From: an uncultured Candidatus Saccharibacteria bacterium
GTDB lineage: Bacteria; Patescibacteriota; Saccharimonadia; Saccharimonadales; Saccharimonadaceae
DNA length: 64,000 nt
NCBI GenBank assembly: GCA_964444615.1
Contig: CAYUHY010000002.1
Coordinates: forward strand, 4,469 to 68,468
Reading direction: 5' to 3'
Numbering within the stretch: the first letter of the stretch is position 1; each line of letters begins with the position of its first letter. Position numbers and translations under genes: made by a program. The notes beneath the pieces are model-generated. The model was not told the origin of the DNA. It saw only the letters and a program-made list of their open reading frames with translations, and made no database searches. Shown one piece after another: positions 11,070 to 63,885 of this stretch.

Positions 11070-11786
11070 TCATTTTCCGAGCCCAGCGTCAAGGTAACGC
11101 TTGACATAGTCCCAGCCCCAGCTATTATCAAAACCGGAAGTAGTAAAACGTCCAAACTTAAAGGTTGGCATTCCATCGGCAAAGCGAGAAGCTTTCTCGG
11201 TGTTAGCTATAATCTCGTCGACCGTTTCATGATTAGCAATGCACTGATCGAAACGCTCACCTAATCCCACTTCATGACCAATTTTTTGCCAATAATCATC
11301 TGGCATAGATTTAATTGGTGTAGCGGTCTTGCTGGAGCCAATACCCTTGGAATGATAATCTTCCCATAGGCTAGTGATGGCGGCATGATAATATTCCCAG
11401 AATTTATCTTCATGCATGGCGCAATAGGTAGCTTCGGCAGCGTCGCGCGAGGCCGCAATCTGATTGCCCTCGTACAGAGTGTCGGTCAAGCGAACTTCGA
11501 AGAGAATATCATTTTCTGCAAGGTAGGTCTTAAATTCATCCCAATGCTCCAGGACCAAGCGCGAGAACACATCGCAATAAGGACACATCAGATCAGTGTA
11601 CATAATATAGGCATTTTTAGCCTGCATGTCTCCGACCGTGGTCGCCTCGTTCCAGACTTGGTCGCCGGCGGCAGGCCGAGAAGTTAGGCTCACTACAATT
11701 AGAGATACAAACGCAATTACTACACCTACGATTGCAATGGTGCGCCAAATCCTCGCCTTACTGTTTTTCTGCTCGTATTCTTCCAT
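11070..11786 (-). CDS. DsbA/thioredoxin-fold thiol:disulfide oxidoreductase, membrane-anchored
   Basis: 238 aa with an N-terminal TM helix and a CPYC active-site motif (YTDLMCPYCDVF). Confidence 0.65.
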   Translation of the reverse strand: MEEYEQKNSKARIWRTIAIVGVVIAFVSLIVVSLTSRPAAGDQVWNEATTVGDMQAKNAYIMYTDLMCPYCDVFSRLVLEHWDEFKTYLAENDILFEVRLTDTLYEGNQIAASRDAAEATYCAMHEDKFWEYYHAAITSLWEDYHSKGIGSSKTATPIKSMPDDYWQKIGHEVGLGERFDQCIANHETVDEIIANTEKASRFADGMPTFKFGRFTTSGFDNSWGWDYVKRYLDAGLGK

Positions 11787-12446
11787 TTATTCCTCTTTCT
11801 TAGCCCGATGCCGTTTATTATAATTTTCGCTCAATGCCATGACGTAAGTCTCTTTGCCGATGCGTTTCAGCGTAAACAGAGCCAGCAAAACAGCACCAAT
11901 CGTGAGAACGCCAGAAATTACACCGGCCAACATATAGCTACTAGAGCTAAAAACTGCACCCAAAACCGGCATCAGTAAAGTAGTGCCGCAAGTGGGGCAG
12001 CCCGACCCTAGTACTGCGAGCCCTGCGACTAACCCAGCGCTTTGTAAATTGTCGGCGTTTTGCATGCCAGCTAGGAGATTCTCGCGACGGTTTTTGCGTT
12101 TTTTCTGCCAAACCAAGACTACCAGGCCAATCAAAACGCTTTGCAGTAAAGTAATCAAAAAGAGCGGCAGCCAATCCCAAAAACTGCGCCCCACACCGAA
12201 AATTCCCAAAAAACTATCACCAATAATCCGGAGTTTCCCCGGCAAATCAGTAGCCCAGAATAAATTCAAAGCCGCAGTGCTGCTAGCCAAAAGACTCATC
12301 AAAGTGCCAAAGATAACAAAGGTGATCAGCATGACCGCCAAAAACTTACCACTACGCGTAGCTAATGCGATCCCCGACAGAGCCATTTTCCATTCATCCA
12401 GCCAGCGGTCCAAGCGTGCACCGATTTTTTTGCCTCCATGTGTCAT
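11787..12446 (-). CDS. Polytopic membrane protein with CPTC motif (possible redox partner of the adjacent DsbA-like protein)
   Basis: 219 aa. GSGCPTCG lies at a helix boundary. Its stop abuts the DsbA-like start (TAAATG). ATG 12446 lies 6 nt after TGTGTTATAAT. Confidence 0.5.
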   Translation of the reverse strand: MTHGGKKIGARLDRWLDEWKMALSGIALATRSGKFLAVMLITFVIFGTLMSLLASSTAALNLFWATDLPGKLRIIGDSFLGIFGVGRSFWDWLPLFLITLLQSVLIGLVVLVWQKKRKNRRENLLAGMQNADNLQSAGLVAGLAVLGSGCPTCGTTLLMPVLGAVFSSSSYMLAGVISGVLTIGAVLLALFTLKRIGKETYVMALSENYNKRHRAKKEE

Positions 12447-12770
12447 GGACTAATTATAACACAGCTGAAATGATTCTGGCTGATTTCTTAATGTTTTGGC
12501 CAGATTTTTCTGAGATGTTTGGAAATTAGTTATAGAAGAAATAGTAGCGGGTGGATTATTGACAAGAGGGATAGCGATAAACGTATTATTGGCAGAAGAC
12601 TTTGCAAACAAAAACTTTGCTTCACGCAGTCATAGCTACCCTACATATTTCTATTGTATCACACATTGTGATTTTTGTCAATAGGCTAGTGTTCGGTTTT
12701 TGGAATTTTACAGAGGTAGTTGTGTAAAACTTCATTTTATTTTTGTGCATATTTTAGCAAAAAATCAATA

Positions 12771-12798
12771 TTGACGACAAACACGAGCGTGATATAAT
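12771..12798 (+). promoter_or_regulatory. Promoter of a candidate small RNA
   Basis: TTGACG (12771-12776), 16-nt spacer, TGATATAAT (-10 hexamer 12793-12798). Confidence 0.5.
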
Positions 12799-12804
12799 GG
12801 AAGT

Positions 12805-12920
12805 AGGTTCGGACGAAATCTGACGTTGAGGGTCGCCCGAGCAAGAAAATAAAATTAATCGCATGGTGGTTTAGATGCGTTATAAAGTTTAAAATCCTGC
12901 TATGTTTAGCAGGATTTTTG
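12805..12920 (+). ncRNA. Candidate ~115-nt small RNA (unknown family)
   Basis: It is bounded by the promoter above and a clean terminator (AATCCTGCT-ATGTTT-AGCAGGATT + TTTTG, 12893-12920). It contains no ORF longer than 8 codons. It lies in a 716-bp ORF-free gap, and the next gene is on the opposite strand. Confidence 0.4.
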
Positions 12921-13168
12921 TCGGATTCGGGGAGCTGGGGCGGATCTTTGATTTTTTATTGGGCAGCAGAGACCTGGGAGCGAGTTTTCTATTTTCATTG
13001 AGTGGCTACAATCTAGACGAATCCCCTGGAGCCTATTGTTGCCTATTCGATGTCGGTTTTATATTTTGCGTGAGCCTGTAGTAGATTTGAGTACTCGTAG
13101 ATCTCGCTGAGTATTATGACAAAAAATGACCCCTAGAGCCTAGAGGTCATGAGGTCAGTTCTTATGCA

Positions 13169-48013: not shown

Positions 48014-49435
48014 TTAGTTTTTTGGGAAAAGCGGTTCAGCAGGAGGGGTAACTTGCTCAGCGGTAAAAATCTGGGTGATTTTTGCGCCGGTCTCGGGTAA
48101 GAAAATCGTGAGCATTTGATTAGCAAGCAATAGTTCACGTTCGAGATTTTGCAAAACTTCAGCCACACGCTCTGATTCCCCGTTTTTGGCAAGTTCCCAA
48201 GGCTTTTGTTCGTCGATGTCTTTGTTGATTTGCTGGACTTTGCTCCAAGCGTAATCAAAAGCTTTGGAAAATTCAAAATTATCCATCAGTGCGCAAAACT
48301 CGGGGTCTAATTTCTCGTCGCTAAGATTTACGCCGCCGATGCGATTCTTCTGACACAAGGTAGCTAAACGCTGCACGAGATTGCCCAGGTCATTGGCGAG
48401 TTCATTATTATAAGCATTCTCAAACTTTTCGTCGGTAAAATCAGAGTCGGCAAAAGAATCAATATGACGCAAGAAGAAATAGCGAAAAGCCGGGAGACCT
48501 TTGCGGGAAAGCACTTCCATCGGATCGACGACATTGCCGATACTTTTGCTCATTTTTTGCCCCGAAGCTAAGACGTGACCATGAGCGACAAGGTTGCGTG
48601 GCAATTCCAAGCCTAAGCCCAGCAAAATTGCCGGCCAAGTAATAGCATGAAAACGCAAGATGTCTTTGCCCACGAATTGGGCTTGCGCCGGCCAATATTC
48701 TGGTAAATCAGTACCATCTGGATACCCTAGGACACTGATATAGTTCGACAGGGCATCAATCCAGACATACATGACCTGATCTTCGTCGCCAGGGACAGGA
48801 ATACCCCACGATAGTTGCTTGCGCGGGCGCGAGATAGAGATATCGGGCGCATCCTCGAGCAGGCGGAGCATTTCTTGCTTGCGGAACTCGGGAGTGATTT
48901 TCATGCGTCCAGACTCGATGGCGGCCTGAATTTGCGGCTTAAAATCGTCGATGCGCAGATAATAATTACTCTCGGAAAGCTGCTGGTAAGGTTTCTGGTG
49001 ATCAGGGCAGCAGCCGTCATTCTCAGCGTATTCTTTTTCTGTCACAAAACGTTCACAGCCCTCACAATACCAACCATTATATTCGGAACGGTAAATATGC
49101 GGTTCGAGCTGTTTCCAAACCGCCTGGCAAGTCTCGATATGCTGAGGATCGGTAGTGCGAATAAAATCGGTATAAGAGATATCCAAGCCATCAATAAACT
49201 GGCGGAATTTGTCGGCGTTGGTGCGGACATATTCTTCGACAGGGACGCCGTTTTTTTGCGCAGTACTAAAGACTTTGTTGCCGTGTTCATCTGTACCGAC
49301 CTGGAATTTCACCTCATCGCCGCGCGCACGACAATAACGCGCGTAGGTATCAGCCAAGAGGTAATCCATGGCATGACCAATGTGAGGGTTACCGTTGACA
49401 TATGGAATAGCTGTACAGATATAAACTTTTGACAT
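48014..49435 (-). CDS. metG: Methionine--tRNA ligase (short form)
   Basis: HIGH (NGNPHIGHA) and KMSKS motifs, plus CEGC...CCPDH zinc knuckles. ATG lies 9 nt after TGTGCTATAAT (49445-49456). Confidence 0.9.
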   Translation of the reverse strand: MSKVYICTAIPYVNGNPHIGHAMDYLLADTYARYCRARGDEVKFQVGTDEHGNKVFSTAQKNGVPVEEYVRTNADKFRQFIDGLDISYTDFIRTTDPQHIETCQAVWKQLEPHIYRSEYNGWYCEGCERFVTEKEYAENDGCCPDHQKPYQQLSESNYYLRIDDFKPQIQAAIESGRMKITPEFRKQEMLRLLEDAPDISISRPRKQLSWGIPVPGDEDQVMYVWIDALSNYISVLGYPDGTDLPEYWPAQAQFVGKDILRFHAITWPAILLGLGLELPRNLVAHGHVLASGQKMSKSIGNVVDPMEVLSRKGLPAFRYFFLRHIDSFADSDFTDEKFENAYNNELANDLGNLVQRLATLCQKNRIGGVNLSDEKLDPEFCALMDNFEFSKAFDYAWSKVQQINKDIDEQKPWELAKNGESERVAEVLQNLERELLLANQMLTIFLPETGAKITQIFTAEQVTPPAEPLFPKN

Positions 49436-49573
49436 AATACTATGATTATAGCACAGAAAAGAAGTTTTGGAGGATTAATGTGAATTGGGCGATGGCTATA
49501 TTGATGGATCCTCTAGGCTTTGTGACTGACGGAAGAAGTGTTTGGTGGCTGACAAAGTGGGCCTATACGGCAT

Positions 49574-49598
49574 GGAAAAGCGCCCCGAGATGGGGCGC
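49574..49598 (-). terminator. Terminator of the 84-aa membrane protein gene
   Basis: GCGCCCC-ATCTC-GGGGCGC followed by TTTTCC on the - strand. Confidence 0.7.
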
Positions 49599-49679
49599 GG
49601 AGGTTGGATGAGGTATGAGTGGTTTTGCGGTAGATGTTACGATTGGTAGGTGGATACTTTGCGGCTTCCTTACTAGTGG

Positions 49680-49934
49680 TTATGGGCGGCGGTGATGGCC
49701 GAAAAGACCGGCAAGCAGGCGGTAGAGCGCCCAGGTGATCAGCACAATAAAGACTAAGCCGACGAACATCACCAGCCAAGTTACGAAGAAAGTGAGGAAG
49801 ATGCCGATGGCAATAATGATACTACCGACCGCGCGCAGGAGTGGGCGCAGTGAGAACCCCACAAAGAGGCTCAAGATCCAGGCTACGACGCCGATCAACA
49901 GGAAAAGCTGTGCATTTTGAGACATGATAGACAT
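49680..49934 (-). CDS. Small polytopic membrane protein (84 aa), self-contained cassette
   Basis: Three hydrophobic helices. TTGACA-N17-TGTGCTATAAT promoter at ~50022-50050, ~85-nt leader, and AGGGGAAGG RBS. Confidence 0.55.
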   Translation of the reverse strand: MSIMSQNAQLFLLIGVVAWILSLFVGFSLRPLLRAVGSIIIAIGIFLTFFVTWLVMFVGLVFIVLITWALYRLLAGLFGHHRRP

Positions 49935-50111
49935 GATTTTCCTTCCCCTTTCACATCCAAATTCTAAGGTACGGTTCTGGGTATCGCTTAGAGATTCCTT
50001 GATAGATACCCTATCTATTCATTATAGCACAGATAGGTAATTTTGTCAATAAGATTTTTAGGTTAACAGAGGTGAAGGATGGGATTGGGTGCAGCTTTTT
50101 GATTTATAAAC

Positions 50112-50374
50112 CTGATAGAGCGCCTAAAAATTTGACTTATTTACTGAAGTTTGTTATGATGGAGACATATGAGTTTAGTTGTTGTCTTCGACGTAGTCGA
50201 GGACAACTTTTATTTTGCGAACGGTTTTGGTAGCATGTACCTCTTCCGTCTGTTCAATAATTACTCTGCCCATATGAGCTCCTTTCAAACTAGTTTTTAA
50301 CTACTAGATTAAGGTTTTTTGATATTAAATATCGACCTTGAATATAGTTACAGTCAATTCTAGGCGCTCTATAG
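50112..50374. repeat. ~260-bp segment bounded by an imperfect ~22-bp inverted repeat (MITE-like or long-range RNA stem)
   Basis: Left arm CTGATAGAGCGCCTAAAAATTTGAC (50112-50136). Right arm GTCAATTCTAGGCGCTCTATAG (50353-50374). The perfect 12-bp core is ATAGAGCGCCTA. Confidence 0.5.
50175..50273 (-). CDS. Candidate 32-aa hydrophilic peptide (MGRVIIEQTEEVHATKTVRKIKVVLDYVEDNN)
   Basis: AAAGGAG RBS lies 5-6 nt before ATG 50273. It is below the ORF-track size cutoff and sits inside the inverted-repeat-bounded segment. Confidence 0.35.
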   Translation of the reverse strand: MGRVIIEQTEEVHATKTVRKIKVVLDYVEDNN

Positions 50375-50375
50375 T

Positions 50376-50402
50376 AAAAGTAGCACAAAAGTGCTACTTT
50401 TA
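50376..50402 (-). terminator. Bidirectional hairpin terminator downstream of the DGR target gene
   Basis: AAAAGTAGCAC-TTTT-GTGCTACTTTT: perfect 8-bp stem flanked by A and T runs. Confidence 0.55.
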
Positions 50403-50535
50403 CCAAGCATAGGCATGATGTTTTTTGTAATTTTCTTTTATTTCAGCTAAAACGTGGTGATTTACGAATGGCAAGGGGCGTAGCGACGGCTTCTCGACAG
50501 ACGTGGTTTTGATGGTACTAATTAATAAAAAGCAA

Positions 50536-50643
50536 GGCGCCAATGAGTTTCTCAACAGACCCGGCTAGCTAGATATTTAGGTATACTTATATTTATAGAC
50601 TAGCTAGACGGTTCTTTTAGTCTGTTTCAAAACTATTGGCGCC
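50536..50643. repeat. Long nested imperfect palindrome just 3' of VR1
   Basis: Three concentric arm pairs: GGCGCCAAT/ATTGGCGCC, AACAGAC/GTCTGTT and CTAGCTAG/CTAGCTAG. It lies 52-160 nt beyond the target gene stop. Confidence 0.7.
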
Positions 50644-50694
50644 CCCACTTTTAGTTTTATTTATGGCTCTCGAGGGTTGTTGGGTTTTAAGATT

Positions 50695-53001
50695 TTAGGA
50701 ATCGCGGGCGATACACCGCACAGCGTATCCGCGGTAACGGCTGCTGCCGACTGTACCAGGGCCGACGCCGCCACTGAGTATGTACAGGTGGTATGCGTAG
50801 TCAGCATTGTACGCCGTACTAGACCACCAGTATCCGTCGCTAGTACCGTAGCCGAGGGAGCCATCGAGGACGTACCCGGTATACTTGAAATTGTAAATGA
50901 CTTTACTATTAGAATCTGTTGCATTCTGAACAATATTTAGATCTCCTGAACCCCAGTTGGTGTATTCATTAAGACCTGGTTTGAGGCTGGTGTTACTAAT
51001 GGTAAGACCCATATTACGGAATAACTTATAATAATCAGACCAGGTATTCTCTGTATTTACATTACTTTGGCGACCACCAGTAGGCAATTTCCAACCTTTA
51101 GGACAGATAGAAGAAGGAGCTTGACTATTAGCGGCTATGGCGTTTGATGAATCTGTGCCTCCAGTACCAGCTGTAGCAGCGTTCCAAGAATAATAACCAG
51201 TTTCTCCAGCATTAGAACTAGAAGCTATATAAGATTGTACAGCATAATACCCTTTGTCTGCTGAGAAGTCTCTATTTCCGGAAGAAGTATTAAGTGAAGT
51301 GAGGGTATTGGTTGGTTTTACGACAGTGCTTAGGGAACTTTGATTCCAGTCGGCACCTTGGTTGAGGTCAGTATCATCCTTACTTAGGCCAGCGGTGGTG
51401 AGTTTGAGTTTGAGGTTACTTGTCATCCAGCATCTACCGTCTCCAAGTTTTCTTACAGTATAAGATTTTCCATCTCTCGTGTCCTGGAGAGTATATTCGG
51501 CACTATATTTTTGGCCAGAGATAAAGGGAGTTTTCTCGCAGACGCGGGGAGTCATTTCTTGCATGGTGGTAATCTCAGAAAGATCAGGATCCCGCATCAC
51601 GCACCGCACAGCGTAACCGACGTAACGGGCGCCGCTGACTGTACCAGGGTCGACGTAGCTACTGATTACGCGCAGGTTGTACGCGTAGCTAGCATCGTTC
51701 GCCGTACTAGACCACCAGTAGCCGCTGCTAGTACCGTCGAGGGAGCCATCGTAGACGTGTCCGGTATATTTAAAGTTGTAAGGAGTAGCTTGGATCTTGG
51801 TAGAGCCGGCAGTATCACTGGTAATTGATGCAGTAGTGGCAAAGGCTTCATATTCTCCACTACTACTACCGGATGGTAGTTTCCAGCCTTTTGGGCAAAT
51901 GGAAGACGGAGCTTGACTGTTGGTAGCTATCACATCTGAATGGCTTGTACCACCAGTACCAGCTGTAGCGGCATTCCAAGAGTAGTAACCGGTTTCTCCT
52001 GCGCTAGAACTAGATACTATGTAGGATTCTACTTTATATGGAATTCCGTTAAAGGTTCCATCGCCACTGGAGACAGAAGTGAATGTATTGGTAGGTTTTA
52101 CGACGGTACTTGGAGAACTTTGGTTCCAGTCCAAGCCTTGGTTAAGGTCGGTGTCATCTTTACTGAGGCCGGCAGTGGTGAGTTTGAGCTTAAGGTTGTC
52201 GGTCATCCAGCATTTACCATCGGCAAACTTTCTAATATTATAGACGTTATCGTCGCGGGAATCTTTGAGCGGGTAGGCATCACTGTAAGTTTGATTAGTA
52301 AGATATGGGGTTTCTTCACAATATTCGGGGTGAGTAGCTAAATCTTGCATGGTGTTAGCTTTTTCTAGGCCAATAAGTTTTCTGGGTGTGGCGACCATGC
52401 TGAGTTGTACGCCAGTTTTGTAATGTCCAGAATTGTTGTTATTCTCGGCAAACTTGGCGGCAAAAACGATGCGTTTAGTAGTAGAATCTAAGGTATTATT
52501 AGCACTTTCTGGTAAAGTTACATTTTCTAATCTTCCAGTGCTCAAACCACTACCGTTAGTACCATAAGTTGGTACAGTATAATAAGTAAGTCCAGCATTA
52601 GTAGTGTCATTATTAGTAGTATTATTAGTCCAGGCAAAACCCCAAGAGTTATTTGCTAAATTAGATCCACTTGTGCCATTAGCTCCTGTTAATGTAGTAG
52701 TACCTCCATCTAACTTCAGACTACTATATCCATTAGCATATGATACTTGTAATGTATAACTATCTATATCGCTAGCAGAATAAGTAACATTACTACTAAG
52801 ATATGCAGTATCGCCAGGCGCTACGGTAGCAGAAAGAGTAGGGTTGCTGACACTGAGTGAAGCGGTAGGACTGATAGCAGCGTAACATTTATTACCGAGT
52901 AACGAAAAGAACAAGGTGCAGATGCTACACAATGGGACAACAAGTCTTAAATATCGATAGCGCGATATACTTAAGAATTTATATTGATAATTGTGTAGCA
53001 T
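50695..53001 (-). CDS. Secreted surface protein with two tandem FISUMP (Fibrobacter succinogenes major paralogous)/C-type-lectin-like domains; DGR target
   Basis: 768 aa. AAAGGAGGG RBS and signal-like N-terminus. Each repeat has CWMT(D/S)NLKLKL ... ICPKGWKLP ... GYWWSST ... GYAVRC(V/I). The two repeats are clearly paralogous. Confidence 0.8.
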   Translation of the reverse strand: MLHNYQYKFLSISRYRYLRLVVPLCSICTLFFSLLGNKCYAAISPTASLSVSNPTLSATVAPGDTAYLSSNVTYSASDIDSYTLQVSYANGYSSLKLDGGTTTLTGANGTSGSNLANNSWGFAWTNNTTNNDTTNAGLTYYTVPTYGTNGSGLSTGRLENVTLPESANNTLDSTTKRIVFAAKFAENNNNSGHYKTGVQLSMVATPRKLIGLEKANTMQDLATHPEYCEETPYLTNQTYSDAYPLKDSRDDNVYNIRKFADGKCWMTDNLKLKLTTAGLSKDDTDLNQGLDWNQSSPSTVVKPTNTFTSVSSGDGTFNGIPYKVESYIVSSSSAGETGYYSWNAATAGTGGTSHSDVIATNSQAPSSICPKGWKLPSGSSSGEYEAFATTASITSDTAGSTKIQATPYNFKYTGHVYDGSLDGTSSGYWWSSTANDASYAYNLRVISSYVDPGTVSGARYVGYAVRCVMRDPDLSEITTMQEMTPRVCEKTPFISGQKYSAEYTLQDTRDGKSYTVRKLGDGRCWMTSNLKLKLTTAGLSKDDTDLNQGADWNQSSLSTVVKPTNTLTSLNTSSGNRDFSADKGYYAVQSYIASSSNAGETGYYSWNAATAGTGGTDSSNAIAANSQAPSSICPKGWKLPTGGRQSNVNTENTWSDYYKLFRNMGLTISNTSLKPGLNEYTNWGSGDLNIVQNATDSNSKVIYNFKYTGYVLDGSLGYGTSDGYWWSSTAYNADYAYHLYILSGGVGPGTVGSSRYRGYAVRCIARDS
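50705..50884 (-). repeat. DGR variable repeat VR1 (C-terminal 60 codons of the target)
   Basis: Ungapped 180-bp match to 53462-53641. By hand count there are ~30 mismatches, ~23 of them at template A (coding strand). Confidence 0.75.
51602..51768 (-). repeat. DGR variable repeat VR2 (end of the first FISUMP domain)
   Basis: Match to the same template. By hand count there are ~26 mismatches plus one 3-nt indel, ~20 of them at template A. Confidence 0.7.
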
Positions 53002-53028
53002 CGAGCCCTCCTTTTGTAGGTTTTTTGA

Positions 53029-53084
53029 GATCTTCGCCCTAAGTAATCTAAAAATCCACTAAAAGATTACTAGGGCGGAAGATC
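53029..53084 (-). promoter_or_regulatory. ~20-bp stem hairpin in the 5' UTR of the DGR target gene
   Basis: On the - strand: GATCTTCCGCCCTAGTAATCT - loop containing GTGGAT - AGATTACTTAGGGCGAAGATC. It lies ~27 nt upstream of the ATG. Confidence 0.6.
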
Positions 53085-53230
53085 ATTTTGTATATATACC
53101 GGGGTATCATTCTTGTATGTAAGTAAAATATCATAAATACACATCAGCGGAGATTGTATAATATGGTATTTTTTGTATAAGTAATCGAGGAGTTTCTCTA
53201 TAGTAGATAGACAACTACTCCAAATACAAA

Positions 53231-53373
53231 AATGGCACCACTAGGGTGCACAATAAACTAATCGGACGAGACTATACTCAACAGATGGCTTATTCCCCTT
53301 GCGGTGCCATTTATACTGTTCAATATAGTAGTCCAGGCGATGTCTTGTCTTTATTAACTAATTTATTGTGCAC
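53231..53373 (-). other. Interleaved inverted repeats (pseudoknot-capable or alternative pairing) followed by a U-run, 3' of the TR
   Basis: On the - strand the order is A (53356-53373), B (53301-53311), A' (53246-53263), B' (53231-53241). A/A' is 17 bp with one mismatch. B/B' is AATGGCACCGC/GTGGTGCCATT. TTTTTGTATTT follows B'. Confidence 0.5.
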
Positions 53374-53461
53374 TCTTATTATATCACAAATTTAGGCTTG
53401 GCTAGATAAAAAATATTGATAAGTTTTGCACAGGTAGAAAAGAAAAATCTAGAATCGGAAC

Positions 53462-53641
53462 CGGGCGATACACCGCACAGCGAATCCGTTGTAACGGTTG
53501 TTGTTGTTTGTACCAGGGCGGACGTTGCTACTGTTTATGTTCAGGTTGTATGCGTTGTTAGCATCGTTCGCCGTACTAGACCACCAGTAGCCGTTGCTAG
53601 TACCATTGTTGAGGGAGCCATCGCCGACGTTCCCGGTATAC
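53462..53641 (-). repeat. DGR template repeat (TR), non-coding
   Basis: The - strand reads YTGNVGDGSLNNGTSNGYWWSSTANDANNAYNLNINSSNVRPGTNNNNRYNGFAVRCIAR, with ~15 AAC codons. There is an in-frame TAG 13 codons upstream with no start codon between, and a TAG 4 codons after. Confidence 0.75.
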
Positions 53642-53835
53642 GCACAACAGTGCCTAGTAGGAAACAGAAACTCCTATTCCTGAGCAAGGCCGTAGCCCAG
53701 CTTCATGCTAACCTGACTCGGCTTCGAGAATTGCCGGCACAGGGGAGTTTCACGATTCTAGGAGTGGGGCACCGTGAGTTGCTGGAGCTTGACCTCAATT
53801 GCTTCCCTTGGAACCCATGAAGATTATGACTTCAC
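53642..53835 (-). ncRNA. G+C-rich ~190-nt non-coding leader transcribed into the TR (putative DGR RNA 5' segment)
   Basis: There is no ORF longer than 35 codons on the - strand. Composition is distinctly G+C-rich versus the flanks. It is contiguous with the TR and downstream of a TGTTATAAT -10. Confidence 0.4.
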
Positions 53836-53841
53836 AGTTTT

Positions 53842-53850
53842 ATTATAACA
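53842..53850 (-). promoter_or_regulatory. Extended -10 promoter (TGTTATAAT) for the TR transcript
   Basis: CATGTTATAAT on the - strand. The -35 region is weak. Confidence 0.45.
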
Positions 53851-54064
53851 TGAGTTGGGGGCGTAAAGATGGTTTTCGGAAGTGTTGCTAGAGGGTTAAT
53901 TTTTATGCTTAAAACGCCCAATTTGGGGCTTCTGGGTTTAGAGCTGGGTAAGGACCGCGGTTTGAGTGCAAAATCGCTAGAAGAGCCAAAAATTAGCCGC
54001 TAGCGGGATTTTGGCACGGAAATAGGCCTAAAAATCGACATTTTTGAAGAAAATTGCAAATTCT

Positions 54065-54856
54065 TCACCCCTGTGAGCGAGGCTGAGAATTATGCTTCTC
54101 GAGAGCTTGATAGAGGCCTTCCCAAGCCCAGAGGCTGAGATCTTCGGCACGCACGTCGGGATCGATGCCCTCAGCGTCAAAGATTTGCAGCCATTGGTCG
54201 CGAGAAATGTGTTCGTCGGCCAGGACACGGGCGAGTTTCTTGCGCGGATTACTGAAACCACGGGCGGCAAGCTGGAGAGAGGCGGGATCTACCGCCGGCT
54301 CGGAAAGTGGAGTCAGGACTAAGACCTGGCTATCTACCTTCGGTGGCGGGGTGAATTCGGCGGCCTGGACGACTGGGCCGAGTTCGGCTTCGGCGAGGTT
54401 TTGGACCATGAGGGCGAGGAGATTATAATCCCCCTCGATAGCGACGATACGCCGAGCGACTTCTTTTTGCATGAGCAGAACGATCTTCTCGGGGCGGGGC
54501 GTGACGGCAAGCATACGACGCACGATGGGCGAGGTAATGTAGTAAGGGATATTACCGGCGACGACGTAAGGACGGTCGGCAACCAGCGGGGCAATCTCAG
54601 TAGTGAGAATATCGCCCTCGATGACACGGAGATTTTTGCCTGGAAACGAAGCTGGAAGCTTGCGGGCAAGGTCGTGATCGTATTCAACGGCAATGACTTC
54701 GGGAAAACGGCGCAAAAGGCTAGAGGTGAGGGTACCGAGACCGGGGCCAATTTCTAGGCATAAGTCTACATCTGGCACGACGGCGAGATCGGCAATTTGA
54801 TCGAGAATAGCACGATTCTGAAGCCAATGCTGGCCGAGAGATTTCTTGTTTTTCAT
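54065..54856 (-). CDS. rsmA: 16S rRNA (adenine1518/1519-N6)-dimethyltransferase
   Basis: KKSLGQHWLQNRAILDQI and SAM motif LEIGPGLGTLT. Start set at ATG 54856 (MKNKKSLGQHWL). The 71 upstream track codons overlap the preceding gene. Confidence 0.85.
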   Translation of the reverse strand: MKNKKSLGQHWLQNRAILDQIADLAVVPDVDLCLEIGPGLGTLTSSLLRRFPEVIAVEYDHDLARKLPASFPGKNLRVIEGDILTTEIAPLVADRPYVVAGNIPYYITSPIVRRMLAVTPRPEKIVLLMQKEVARRIVAIEGDYNLLALMVQNLAEAELGPVVQAAEFTPPPKVDSQVLVLTPLSEPAVDPASLQLAARGFSNPRKKLARVLADEHISRDQWLQIFDAEGIDPDVRAEDLSLWAWEGLYQALEKHNSQPRSQG

Positions 54857-57044: not shown

Positions 57045-57081
57045 AGTGTCCTCCTTAGTTTTATTCTGCCTTTTCCGTTGT

Positions 57082-57171
57082 AATCGGCAGTATTATATTG
57101 ACAAATTGGTGATTTGGTAGGTTTGTGGCGTGGATTGGGTTCGTAGCGTTGTCAATATGATATTGCCGATT
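57082..57171 (-). promoter_or_regulatory. ~23-bp imperfect inverted repeat in the orphan E leader, immediately upstream of its RBS
   Basis: AATCGGCAGTATTATATTGACAA (57082-57104) pairs with TTGTCAATATGATATTGCCGATT (57149-57171). Confidence 0.55.
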
Positions 57172-57199
57172 AGCTCGGGGCATAAGGATGGAGTTGGCT

Positions 57200-57325
57200 G
57201 TGGTGACTGAAAATAGGGAGGGTATTTGACTGTATCAGGTAGAAATTTGACTATATGGGCTGGAAATAGGGAGGGATCTGATCGTATTAGCTGGAAATAA
57301 GGGGATTTGACCATATGGGCTGGGA
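57200..57325. repeat. Degenerate ~30-bp tandem repeats inside the orphan E leader
   Basis: GCTGGAAATAGGGAGGGAT...TTGACNATATGG-like units recur about 4 times. Confidence 0.6.
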
Positions 57326-57376
57326 TTTTACTTTTACCATTAAAAAACTTGGGGAGAAAAAACACCCCATATCTTC

Positions 57377-57405
57377 ATTATAGCACACTTTATGTAAAAA
57401 GTCAA
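57377..57405 (-). promoter_or_regulatory. Promoter of orphan E (implies ~325-nt leader)
   Basis: TTGACT, 17 nt, TGTGCTATAAT on the - strand. An ATG 6 nt after the -10 opens a 27-codon uORF. Confidence 0.6.
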
Positions 57406-57525
57406 TGGTTTTGCTGTGATCGTGGGATTGTTCTATAGTTTTTCTCAATAACTATGTTTTGATCTAGCTTTCTTGATAGAGGTAGCAGATTACGGATAGG
57501 GCAAAGCCTGTGATTATGGCTACTC

Positions 57526-61998: not shown

Positions 61999-63885
61999 CT
62001 AATGGTTGCTTAGAATTGCTTTGATGCGGCGCACGCCGGCAGAAGAGGATTCTTCTTTGGTGATTTTGAATTCACCCAGCTCGCCGGTGCGTTCTACATG
62101 CGGGCCACCACAAATTTCGATGGAAATTGGTGCTTCCCCGTCCTTGCCGATGGTATAGACGGTAACTTTGTCGGGGTAGCGATCGCGGAACGAGCCGTGG
62201 GCATGCAATTCATCAAAAGCATAATCTTTGTCATATTCGGCATGCTGGACAGGATAATCGGCCTGGATCCATTGATTGACTCGATCCTCGACTTTTTGGA
62301 GTTCTTCGGGAGTTAATTTATGATCGATATTAAAGTCAAAGCGCAAACGCTCCGGGGTGAGATTGCTGCCTTTTTGATTGATATTGGAGTCAATTTCTTG
62401 CTGCAAAGCCGCCAGTAGCAGGTGGCAAGCGGTGTGATATTTGACGGTCTGATCGCTAGTGTCCGAGAGACCGCCCTTAAACATGCCTTTAGAAGCGGTC
62501 TTGCTGCGATTGCGCTGTTCTTCGAGAGCGGCGGCAAATTCGTCCTGATAATTATCCGAGAGGCGCAAGTTGAGCTTGTAGGCTTCTTCCACGCTGAGCT
62601 CGAGTGGAAAACCGTAAGTATCTTGCAGCTTAAAGAGCTCGGCGCCGGTGAGTAATTGATCTCTGCCCATTTTTTCTAATTCTTTGACACCCTTGTTAAT
62701 GGTCTTACGGAAAGCATTTTCTTCTTTGGTCAAGACCTCGAGGACGTTTTTGCGATTTGGCAAAATATCATCGGAAAGTTCTTGATAATTCTCGGCAATG
62801 ATGGGGATAATTTGCTCTAAGAAATCTTGGCCAATACCAAGGTCGAGGGCTTTGAGTACGGCACGGCGGACCAAACGACGCAAAGCATAACCTTGAGCCT
62901 TATTTGATGGCGTCAAGCCTTGGGCGGCCAGCAAGTAGGCGCCACGTAAATGATCGGCGATGATGCGCATTTCGTCGGTATTATTATCGTAATTTTTGTG
63001 CGAAATTTCTTCGAGTTTACTAATAATTGGCTGCATTAAAGAAATCTTGAAAACGTCAAAACTCCCCATCGCAGCAGCCGCTAGACGCTCCAAGCCGCCG
63101 CCGAAATCGACATTTTTTTGCTCCAGTTCAGAGAAACTGCCGTCCTCATTGCGCTTGTATTGCATGAAAACTTGGTTGCCAATTTCCATAAAACGGGCGC
63201 CGTCGCTAGCGGGATGGGATTTGCCATATTTCTCAACATCCTGCTTGTCTTCGCCAAAATCATAGAAAACTTCTGAATCCGGTCCACAAGGATCGCCCAA
63301 CGGAGTGGTATCAATGCCACCGCCGCGGCTCCACCAGTTTTCCTTGTCATCGTAGAAGAAGATGCGCTCGCCTGGCAAAATGCCCCGCCGATCACCATTC
63401 TCAGCACTGCCGATTTCGGCAATTTTGGCATCAATACCGGCCTTAGCGAAGACTTTTTGCCAAATCTCCGCGGCCTCGGTGTCTTTAGGAATGCCATGTT
63501 TCTCATCACCAATAAAGCAGGTCACAAAAATCTTTTCGGGATCCAAACCGATTTCTTTGGTGAGAAATTCAAAGTAATTTTCGATCTGCTCGGCTTTGAA
63601 ATAATCGCCCAAAGACCAGTTACCTAGCATCTCAAAAACGGTAGTGTGGCGCGGATCGCCCACATCTTCGATATCCTGCAAGCGCATGCTGGGTTGAGAG
63701 TCCGTCAGACGTTTCCCTTCTGGGTGCGGCTGACCCAACAGATGCGGCAATAACGGTTGCATACCAGAGCCGGTGAACAAAGTGGTAGGGTCATTTTCGA
63801 GCACGAGAGGCGCAGGAGGAATGACTTTGTGACCATGCTTTTCTTGGAATTGTAGAAACTTTTGACGGATTTCGTTTGCGTTCAT
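61999..63885 (-). CDS. alaS: Alanine--tRNA ligase, short form lacking the C-Ala domain
   Basis: 628 aa. N-terminal class II core (FTGSGMQP, FEMLGNWSLGDYFK) and editing-domain HTACHLL and CGGPHV motifs. The protein ends ~35 aa after the latter. ATG lies 8 nt after TGTGCTATAAT (63893-63904). Confidence 0.85.
   Translation of the reverse strand: MNANEIRQKFLQFQEKHGHKVIPPAPLVLENDPTTLFTGSGMQPLLPHLLGQPHPEGKRLTDSQPSMRLQDIEDVGDPRHTTVFEMLGNWSLGDYFKAEQIENYFEFLTKEIGLDPEKIFVTCFIGDEKHGIPKDTEAAEIWQKVFAKAGIDAKIAEIGSAENGDRRGILPGERIFFYDDKENWWSRGGGIDTTPLGDPCGPDSEVFYDFGEDKQDVEKYGKSHPASDGARFMEIGNQVFMQYKRNEDGSFSELEQKNVDFGGGLERLAAAAMGSFDVFKISLMQPIISKLEEISHKNYDNNTDEMRIIADHLRGAYLLAAQGLTPSNKAQGYALRRLVRRAVLKALDLGIGQDFLEQIIPIIAENYQELSDDILPNRKNVLEVLTKEENAFRKTINKGVKELEKMGRDQLLTGAELFKLQDTYGFPLELSVEEAYKLNLRLSDNYQDEFAAALEEQRNRSKTASKGMFKGGLSDTSDQTVKYHTACHLLLAALQQEIDSNINQKGSNLTPERLRFDFNIDHKLTPEELQKVEDRVNQWIQADYPVQHAEYDKDYAFDELHAHGSFRDRYPDKVTVYTIGKDGEAPISIEICGGPHVERTGELGEFKITKEESSSAGVRRIKAILSNH

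Follow-up and report, generated by a model that had tools for sequence, protein, structure and literature searches.

A 64,000-nt stretch of contig CAYUHY010000002.1 (assembly GCA_964444615.1) from an uncultured Candidatus Saccharibacteria bacterium, called the window here and used for all coordinates, carries the template repeat (TR) and the target gene of a diversity-generating retroelement (DGR) and no reverse transcriptase (RT) gene. The minus-strand interval 53850→53449 appears to be a self-contained DGR template-RNA gene, which comprises a −10 element, a folded leader of ~190 nt, the 180-nt TR, and a 12-nt 3' flank. A Saccharibacteria-type DGR clade (L331, L325, L336, and L143) has the leader as its standard RNA between RT and TR, and a covarying long-range helix joins the leader to the sequence directly 3' of the TR. 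There is roughly an even chance that a DGR at this locus has lost its RT module, leaving template cassette and target behind, and that the locus is now drifting. The features of the cassette and its target are as follows:

53850→53842, minus strand: extended −10, TGTTATAAT, read from the sequence; transcription would start near 53836
53838→53642, minus strand: conserved structured leader RNA, 197 nt, 52% G+C (nhmmer, covariance model)
53833-53819 (H1), 53816-53767 (H2), 53743-53713 (H3), and 53698-53687 (H4), minus strand: leader helices
53761-53749, minus strand: 5' strand of the long-range helix, CUAGAAUCG-U-GAA, ending in the invariant A53749
53641→53462, minus strand: TR, 180 nt, 52 A, noncoding
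53449..53461, minus strand: invariant G53461 and 3' strand of the long-range helix, UUCCGAUUCUAG (53460-53449)
53001→50695, minus strand: target gene, 768 amino acids (aa), two Fib_succ_major modules (Pfam PF09603)
51768→51602, minus strand: variable repeat 2 (VR2), internal in the target, 82% identical to the TR
50884→50705, minus strand: variable repeat 1 (VR1), C-terminal in the target, 83% identical to the TR, ending 8 nt ahead of the stop codon

Template repeat and target gene

The TR (53462-53641) recurs twice within a single 768-aa open reading frame (ORF), at 50705-50884 (VR1) and at 51602-51768 (VR2), and the window contains 3 copies of a 21-nt core of the repeat where chance would give 0.02. 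On the strand of the gene, 23 of the 30 mismatches in VR1 and 21 of the 27 in VR2 fall on TR adenines, a weaker bias than that of the relative L331 (17/17 at A). The TR is A-rich and presents about 13 AAC codons in the VR frame, where the VRs vary. The ORF matches PF09603, Fib_succ_major (FISUMP), in two stretches (E = 4e-16) and has a VR at its C terminus; judged from sequence, its modules are C-type-lectin-like, in line with the lectin- or Ig-like domain of DGR targets. The TR, the two VRs, and the Fib_succ_major target together show that a DGR template repeat and target are genuinely present, and the initial annotation was right to read the locus as a DGR. The cassette lies upstream of the target, the TR being 460 nt from the start codon, and a TR with its leader at this distance excludes the remote-target (VR-only) class. 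The homology of TR and VR1 terminates in G+C-rich ...GTATCGCCCG, with G53461 at this end, and that of VR2 ends ~12 nt earlier; an obvious G+C-rich hairpin was not seen within ~60 nt after VR1. The target gene also contains the internal duplications D2 and D3.

The TR lies in the orientation of the target, and a few bases on its 5' side look like those of VR2, as would be expected of a remnant of a third variable domain or a pseudogene of the target family. Such an origin is effectively refuted, given that leader and spacer have no protein-level similarity to the target (blastx E ≥ 2), that the A-rich TR has its AAC codons where the VRs vary, and that its homology to RT-adjacent TRs extends over leader and 3' flank. 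Leader and spacer likewise showed no blastx or blastn similarity that would mark a decayed avd or a target pseudogene, and this origin was rejected.

The target has 273 homologues, the nearest of which all come from NCBI metagenome-assembled genomes. An A-biased repeat scan (at least 70% of mismatches at A) of 80 metagenome loci of target relatives, with identities of at most 48% (at most 41% for matches spanning most of the protein), gave clear TR/VR pairs in the window only, a scan that also misses the genuine TR/VR pair of L143. Most Fib_succ_major paralogues are not DGR targets. No TR was found within 6 kb at the P0023 loci, and the exact TR core has no match in viral contigs.

Conservation of the leader and its promoter

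Relatives of the cassette were found by a protein-database search with a spurious antisense ORF called over the TR. Antisense-TR ORFs occur on four other contigs, among them the 1,248-nt Logan contig L201, and further cassettes came from the contigs of RT homologues of the clade. L201 is 72% identical to the window over 420 nt, in an alignment that begins exactly at the −10, covers leader and TR, and ends ~10 nt past the TR. Homologous TRs are present in L201, in L331, and in the antisense-ORF matches P0242-P0245, and the leader is found 5' of the TR in six independent lineages (L200, L201, L143 with two copies, L331, L325-L330, and L336). By nhmmer the leader matches L200, L201, both copies in L143, and L331 with E values of 1e-18 to 1e-55, with a partial match in L325-L330 (E = 2.6e-12). 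It begins 14-45 nt past the RT stop codon in L331, L325-L330, and L336, the usual order in complete elements of the clade being accessory–RT–leader–TR.

A covariance model, R1, has a single match in the window, at 53838-53728, with a score (115 bits, E = 8e-28) that is partly by construction, since the window sequence is in the seed alignment. Outside the window R1 matches DGR cassettes only, and the nhmmer and blastn matches to L201, L143, and L331 support the leader family independently of the model. Rfam 15 gave no match at the gathering score over the whole window and none at E ≤ 1 over 52900-54150, and neither nhmmer nor the covariance model found the leader in 80 viral DGR RT loci (30-43% identity to the query RT). 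Matches of a degenerate leader pattern in viral contigs were rejected as chance. In genome contigs the degenerate pattern TNCTGGTGGTCTNGTNCGGCG (18 specified bases) produced more than 113 chance matches in G+C-rich genomes, and its sole Saccharibacteria match, L058, is a murD/ftsW/murG locus.

The initial annotation had suggested that the G+C-rich leader belongs to an unusual RNA component. Conservation, covariation, and its presence in six lineages identify it as an RNA component, but not as one peculiar to this locus. The atypical DGR architecture proposed at the same time holds for the promoter–leader–TR unit, which stands apart from any RT, and not for the leader itself, which is standard in the clade. 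Of the span first marked, 53642-54064, only 53838-53642 is conserved leader, and 53851-54064 is unconserved spacer.

The motif TGNTAYAAT occurs 36 times in the window, mostly just 5' of genes, and is thus the normal −10 of this genome. The element TGTTATAAT fits this consensus, and a TGNTAYAAT −10 stands at the equivalent place at the start of every homologous cassette, RT-adjacent ones included (TGCTACAAT in L201; TGCTATAAT in both L143 copies, L325, and L336; TGGTATAAT in L331). The sequence thus predicts transcription from the cassette −10, and with a promoter on every cassette the template RNA would be made independently of the RT mRNA. The leader (53838→53642) has 52% G+C, compared with 34% in the downstream spacer and 43.5% in 53851-54064, and no ORF on its sense strand, which agrees with the earlier description of a G+C-rich, ORF-free leader of ~190 nt.

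The same −10 often stands only 10-30 nt ahead of a start codon elsewhere in the window (49453-49445 before the metG ATG at 49435; 63902-63894 before alaS at 63885), so that many mRNAs may be leaderless or have very short leaders.

A near-identical strain from another sample (SRR31732366) is represented by the Logan contig L200, which ends at variable intergenic patches and inside the TR. The two strains differ at 3 of 264 positions in leader plus TR, at 15 of 190 in 54027-53837, and at 1 of ~1,850 in the coding sequences of G5 and rsmA; 14 differences lie in the spacer 53851-54064. The patch 54027-53837 is anomalously variable and is not a neutral yardstick, which makes a firm inference of constraint from L200 impossible. 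Of the two leader changes in L200, one is at an unpaired variable column and the other turns a C-G pair into U-G. The strains also differ by several substitutions and a 17-nt indel at 56252-56170.

Leader structure and the long-range helix

RNAalifold of five cassettes gives a 5' hairpin (H1), a composite stem (H2), two hairpins (H3 and H4), and a long-range helix between leader columns 84-96 and the 12 nt directly 3' of the TR. Over the five cassettes, 91% of pair cells are standard, compared with 33-50% when the partners are slid by 1-3 columns, and 13 pairs are changed on both sides, compared with 2-5 in the slid controls; none of 500 shuffles (0/500) reached the observed values. Compensatory changes occur in 5 of the 7 helix segments scored.

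The long-range helix has 12 pairs, is 100% paired in the 5 cassettes, and has 3 columns changed on both sides. C53761–G53753 and G53751–A53749 pair with C53457–G53449 and U53460–C53458, respectively, with U53752 bulged, so that the TR is enclosed by a 12-bp duplex of upstream and downstream sequence (53761-53749/53460-53449), as in the cis-elements of DGRs. The helix core, 9 nt in most cassettes, exists in six variants over seven cassettes (CUAGAAUCG, UUAGGAUCG, UUAGGAUUG, CUAGAAUUG, AAAGAUCG, and UAGAAGAUCG), each with an exact complement right after the TR; L325 and L336 also have this perfect complement. The sequence G-UUCC is invariant in all 5 aligned cassettes (5/5), as is the A with which the leader strand ends. 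Among the aligned cassettes no conservation is seen 3' of the 12-nt helix strand.

The helix is also present in the single-sequence minimum free energy structure of the whole cassette. The leader alone folds no better than shuffles (z = −0.5), and the whole cassette reaches z = −1.5. The support for the structure is therefore comparative, from covariation among few sequences: the fold of leader plus TR across relatives, to which the initial annotation had pointed, finds backing in 13 compensatory pairs and none in the z scores of single sequences.

These low z scores, and the position of the leader directly after the RT gene in most loci, would suit a leader that is conserved as a by-product (an RT 3' untranslated region [UTR], a terminator, or a promoter region) and has no role in reverse transcription, the cassette being a meaningless duplicated fragment. 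This is very improbable, however, in view of the compensatory changes in 5 of 7 segments and of a long-range pairing that spans about 300 nt of TR. The leader has, moreover, stayed with the TR in cassettes that have no RT gene ahead of them (those of the window and of L201, and the satellite cassette of L143 described below), and the two leader copies of L143 differ at one position in the 5' 110 nt while their 3' halves have diverged.

A model for the role of the helix is offered by the DGR of the Bordetella phage BPP-1, in which the TR needs flanking RNA and Sp 47-56 pairs with TR 117-129 (10.1101/2023.10.23.563531). The 2'-OH of Sp A56 primes the cDNA there, TR G117 being the first template base, and sequences on either side of the TR pair in a further duplex (10.1101/2023.10.23.563531). 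On this model the leader would do the work of Sp from a position 5' of the TR, which fits the order accessory–RT–leader–TR. The long-range helix would lay the leader strand CUAGAAUCG-U-GAA on the TR 3' flank in primer-on-template orientation, with A53749 stacked beside G53461; cDNA synthesis would start there and run 5'-ward through the TR, and the adenine-mutagenized cDNA would replace VR1 or VR2 of the adjoining Fib_succ_major gene. The invariant A53749 and G53461 make the sequence compatible with cis-priming from an adenosine opposite a template G, and by analogy A53749 may have the priming role and G53461 that of the first template nucleotide.

As in BPP-1 (avd 3' end–TR–Sp; Handa et al. 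2018, PMC6182149, 10.1101/2023.10.23.563531), the TR is embedded in flanking noncoding RNA, the sequences flanking it on both sides pair, and an A-rich TR templates a C-terminal VR. A short duplex sets the putative priming adenosine beside a template G at the TR 3' edge, and the helix geometry matches that of Sp A56/TR G117. Unlike BPP-1, where the order is TR–Sp–RT and the RNA is 3', the clade has its conserved RNA 5' of the TR, in the order RT–leader–TR. A ~140-nt Sp RNA directly 3' of the TR is absent here, conservation stopping 12 nt past the TR; there is no sequence or Rfam similarity to the phage RNA, and the RNA has its own promoter. The Avd of BPP-1 is also likely replaced in the clade by a 258-329-aa accessory protein without a Pfam match, and the window has no linked RT.

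Three limits apply to this evidence. The structure is derived from a small set of 5-7 cassettes, of which two share a locus; L325 and L336 lack the extra 3 bp (GAA:UUC); and the priming model is drawn by analogy only. A pairing between sequences upstream and downstream of the TR, the 'cPRT Stop' (13 bp on average), has been reported for 207 DGRs and described as widely conserved (10.1101/2023.10.23.563531). The helix is exactly such a pairing, and could be the stop duplex of this clade rather than a primer:template duplex, with priming from another element. We consider this unlikely, because the BPP-1 stop duplex abuts the 5' edge of the TR, whereas in the present cassette it is the 3' edge that the downstream strand adjoins, with the upstream strand 108 nt away on the 5' side of the TR. 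In addition, nothing 3' of the helix is conserved, which leaves no Sp-like primer candidate downstream, and the leader strand ends in an invariant A while an invariant G precedes the flank strand.

Search for a reverse transcriptase and accessory gene

Pfam searches of 50 ORFs, nearly all of the predicted coding sequence of the window, gave no RVT_1 or Avd-like match; the ORFs belong to housekeeping families (aminoacyl-tRNA synthetases, UvrA, UvrD, RecO, FemAB, ribosomal proteins, and others) or have no match. No YxDD or GNxxSQ context was found in the six frames of the window, and tblastn of four clade RTs (L143, L151, L331, and L332) and four accessory proteins against it gave nothing better than E = 0.007. 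No accessory gene (Avd, HRDC, MSL, or CH1) is present in the 64 kb. The initial annotation's statement that RT and Avd are missing from the window is thus borne out by domain, motif, and protein searches alike. Outside the window lie 5.1 kb of the 69,094-nt contig, of which at least 2.1 kb are dnaE, left of the window; at most ~1.6 kb of the contig is then unaccounted for, assuming a dnaE of ~1,150 aa (first 693 aa seen).

Two relatives show where an RT module would be expected. L331 shares UvrD–G5–rsmA–…–target with the window at 68-79% DNA identity and carries TR, leader, RT, and accessory gene just past the 3' end of the target, on the opposite strand, with the RT gene at 7424-8773 of L331. 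L332 shares MIP–metG with the window and has accessory–RT 3.4 kb from metG. In the corresponding space of the window, 49436-50694, no remnant of an RT module was detectable by tblastn, blastn, or covariance model, and the candidate RT pseudogene in this interval was rejected on the same searches.

A gene encoding 258-329 aa lies directly 5' of the RT, overlapping or abutting it in most cases (L331 6442-7431, L143 15148-16062, L332 7169-8008, L336 7007-7978, and L151 2041-2817). This accessory-type gene is found in 4 of the 5 RT-linked relatives examined (L143, L331, L332, and L336), as well as in L151, and has no significant Pfam match; none was found on the RT strand in L325. The protein is likely a clade-specific accessory replacing Avd.

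L143 has a DGR RT and two leader-TR cassettes, 0.7 kb apart. One leader precedes a TR just downstream of the target (the satellite cassette); the second, on the opposite strand and 0.8 kb downstream of the RT, precedes a second TR. The RT-adjacent TR accounts for the VR, with 18 A and 2 non-A mismatches, one of the latter at the same TTC/TAC codon that differs in the window (below). The satellite TR is a poor donor for its adjacent VR, 14 of the 25 mismatches being at A and 11 non-A, and 9 of its 11 differences from the RT-adjacent TR are at adenines of the latter. Satellite cassettes with eroded TRs therefore exist in genomes with an RT.

The two L143 cassettes (11770-13160) face each other. 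The first ~110 nt of their leaders differ at one position and the 3' halves are strongly diverged, a pattern that points to gene conversion, or to selection, with independent effects on different parts of the cassette. Genes or a fragment of a PemK/MazF-type toxin (PF02452, E = 8e-9) stand directly 3' of TR cassettes and upstream of the target in L201 (660-298) and in L143 (9035-9472 and ~12397 onward); the two PemK/MazF loci are unrelated, and a 60-nt repeat links the two copies in L143. In L325, which belongs to the widespread RT family P0187 (listed in 229 blocks), the leader is followed in place of a TR by a 309-nt exact inverted copy of the target 3' end with few adenines (9492-9800/10692-11000). 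This copy may be an assembly artifact in which TR and VR were collapsed, or else VR sequence has overwritten the TR.

Possible loss of the reverse transcriptase or action in trans

Both syntenic relatives, L331 and L332, carry an RT at the corresponding locus, of which the window keeps no trace. The local TR codons GGC, CGC, AAT, and TTC, at 53625-53623, 53515-53513, 53607-53605, and 53476-53474, respectively, stand against CTC/TAC, GGC/GAC, TAC/-AC, and TAC/TAC in VR1/VR2; these mismatches are non-A, and the disagreement with both VRs indicates that the local TR did not write them in their present form. The TRs of relatives have NAC at the first three of these codons and are mixed at the fourth (P0242 shares TTC, and P0243 appears to have TAC). 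Adenines must then have disappeared from the local TR after the latest rewriting of the VRs, unless a different TR served as their source. In addition, about 2 non-A changes are private to each VR. We lean slightly to loss of the RT from the genome as a whole over its action in trans.

Several observations weigh against loss. The window covers 64 of the 69 kb of one contig, and an RT could lie elsewhere in the genome, roughly 90% of which is unseen (Saccharibacteria genomes are estimated at roughly 0.7-1 Mb). The leader is without decay, with all pairs intact in H1, H4, and the long-range helix and with H2 and H3 at least as well paired as in L201, and the −10 is perfect. A target-adjacent satellite cassette coexists with an RT-adjacent one in L143, and the L201 cassette has its own promoter and no RT gene end within 70 nt upstream. 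Three contigs of relatives with TR-antisense ORFs (27, 16, and 63 kb) match no RT-bearing contig in size, and an unlinked TR may therefore be normal in the clade. Finally, the RT-adjacent TR of L143 also has 2 non-A mismatches, which means that a few of these do not prove inactivity.

With somewhat less than an even chance, then, the cassette is active, and an RT and accessory elsewhere in the genome, probably with a leader-TR of their own, act in trans on the template RNA, on VR1/VR2, or on both, as parts of a modular DGR with template genes placed beside targets. The intact leader, long-range helix, and −10 would fit this, as would the size mismatch of TR- and RT-bearing contigs, the 52 A and many AAC codons that the TR retains, the own promoter that would make the RNA of every cassette independent of RT mRNA, and the two L143 cassettes, RT adjacent and target adjacent, that stand only 0.7 kb apart. 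The changes attributed to the local TR are at A sites in 5 of 6 cases, which fits purifying selection on non-A sites, and trans action of avd-TR-brt has been shown experimentally in Bordetella phage (Wu et al. 2018, PMC5758913). However, no RT was found within 64 kb, both syntenic relatives have theirs at this locus, and the non-A mismatches at four codons mean that neither VR1 nor VR2 in its present form can derive from the local TR. The private non-A changes in each VR further imply no recent rewriting by any TR, and the L143 satellite TR, with 11 of 25 mismatches non-A, is itself a poor donor. An explanation other than an RT that was lost or acts in trans is improbable.

Extended to the clade, action in trans would make the template RNA an autonomous gene, with one RT/accessory pair serving several target-adjacent cassettes, including this one. 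The priming RNA would lie upstream of the TR as a mirror image of Bordetella, with leader A53749 priming cDNA synthesis across a ~300-nt loop that the covarying helix closes. We put this combined view forward tentatively, as possible rather than probable.

Relation to known systems

Fib_succ_major/DUF1566-type targets make up category 'd' of Wu et al. 2018 (PMC5758913), and remote VRs, trans action of avd-TR-brt, RT–TR gene orders, TR and RT on different strands, and multi-TR DGRs are already established in the literature. In the remote-target DGRs of Treponema denticola, Legionella, and cyanobacteria (PMC5758913), as may be the case here, RT and target can be kilobases to megabases apart, and trans action is accepted. 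There, the TR stays with the RT and the VR is remote, whereas here the TR and the full cis-RNA stand beside the target and the RT is missing. T. denticola isolates without a core DGR (PMC4891356) resemble the window in having target VRs that differ from the TR mainly at adenines, no RT in the region, and the beginnings of non-A divergence. Those leftovers have lost both RT and TR, whereas TR, promoter, and leader are kept here and are structurally intact. Multi-TR DGRs such as that of Stenotrophomonas sp. SKA14 (two TRs and six VRs; PMC6642488) share with L143 and its two leader-TR cassettes the presence of more than one TR, but consist of TR/VR sets beside one RT (PMC6642488), and self-promoted, leader-bearing satellites were not described in the literature searched. 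In that literature, whose coverage is incomplete and does not include Paul et al. 2017 on DGRs of the candidate phyla radiation, neither a self-promoted TR cassette beside a target without an RT nor a structured RNA of ~190 nt that is conserved 5' of a TR and pairs in primer-like fashion with the TR 3' flank was found.

The surveys cited seek TRs starting from RT genes, and a TR beside a target without an RT would therefore go unreported; a target-adjacent, self-promoted template cassette would be invisible to them. If such cassettes work in trans, the DGR repertoires of small-genome symbionts are under-counted, and an RNA gene on its own would count among the units in which DGRs move and evolve. 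Knowledge of the essential flanking RNA so far comes from a single phage system, where it is 3' of the TR, and a 5'-side RNA family with the same A-on-G geometry would show universal features of cis-priming. For engineered DGR mutagenesis, the cassette would also offer a template module that is compact and expressed separately. Should the locus instead be a relic, it captures DGR decay partway, after the RT has disappeared but with TR and leader still intact, a stage not found in the literature searched.

Other features of the locus

The surroundings of the cassette contain the following further features:

54856→54065, minus strand: rsmA, the upstream flank of the template cassette
53851..54064, minus strand: unconserved 214-nt spacer from the rsmA stop codon to the cassette promoter, with no counterpart in other cassettes
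53002..53448, minus strand: A+T-rich spacer, probable 5' UTR of the target, outside the conserved cassette
53386-53378, minus strand: second extended −10, TGATATAAT, in the probable 5' UTR of the target
before the target ATG at 53001, minus strand: Shine-Dalgarno sequence AAAGGAGG
49436..50694, strand unspecified: ORF-poor 1.26-kb stretch from the target stop codon to metG, mostly A+T-rich

The initial annotation had placed structured RNA after the TR, followed by the target gene. The 460 nt between TR and start codon do fold far better than shuffles (z = −6.0). Two long hairpins lie in this probable 5' UTR, at 53373-53245 (~130 nt, 18-bp outer stem) and 53084-53029 (~20 bp) on the minus strand, both 3' of the second extended −10. 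The hairpin region 53002-53448 has no homologue in any fetched locus and no Rfam match. Among the flanking genes, the one first taken for a cell-wall hydrolase is identified by Pfam as a G5/DUF348 protein instead.

The ORF-poor stretch 3' of the target contains a perfect TTGACA-17-TATAAT promoter at 50049-50021. A 32-aa ORF, MGRVIIEQTEEVHATKTVRKIKVVLDYVEDNN, with a strong Shine-Dalgarno sequence, GAAAGGAG, lies in the same gap at 50273-50175 (minus strand) and overlaps a terminator-like hairpin of the opposite strand. An inverted repeat at 53953-53998/59637-59682 (72%) was taken as chance (blastn E = 0.08). The intergenic region 57045-57525, between UvrD and a 262-aa ORF of unknown function, has a strong G-over-C skew. 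It contains four imperfect repeats of ~31 nt with TTGACnnTAT (57216-57327) and a 24-nt palindrome pair (57081-57104/57149-57172, 92%), which may be a set of operator or binding sites.

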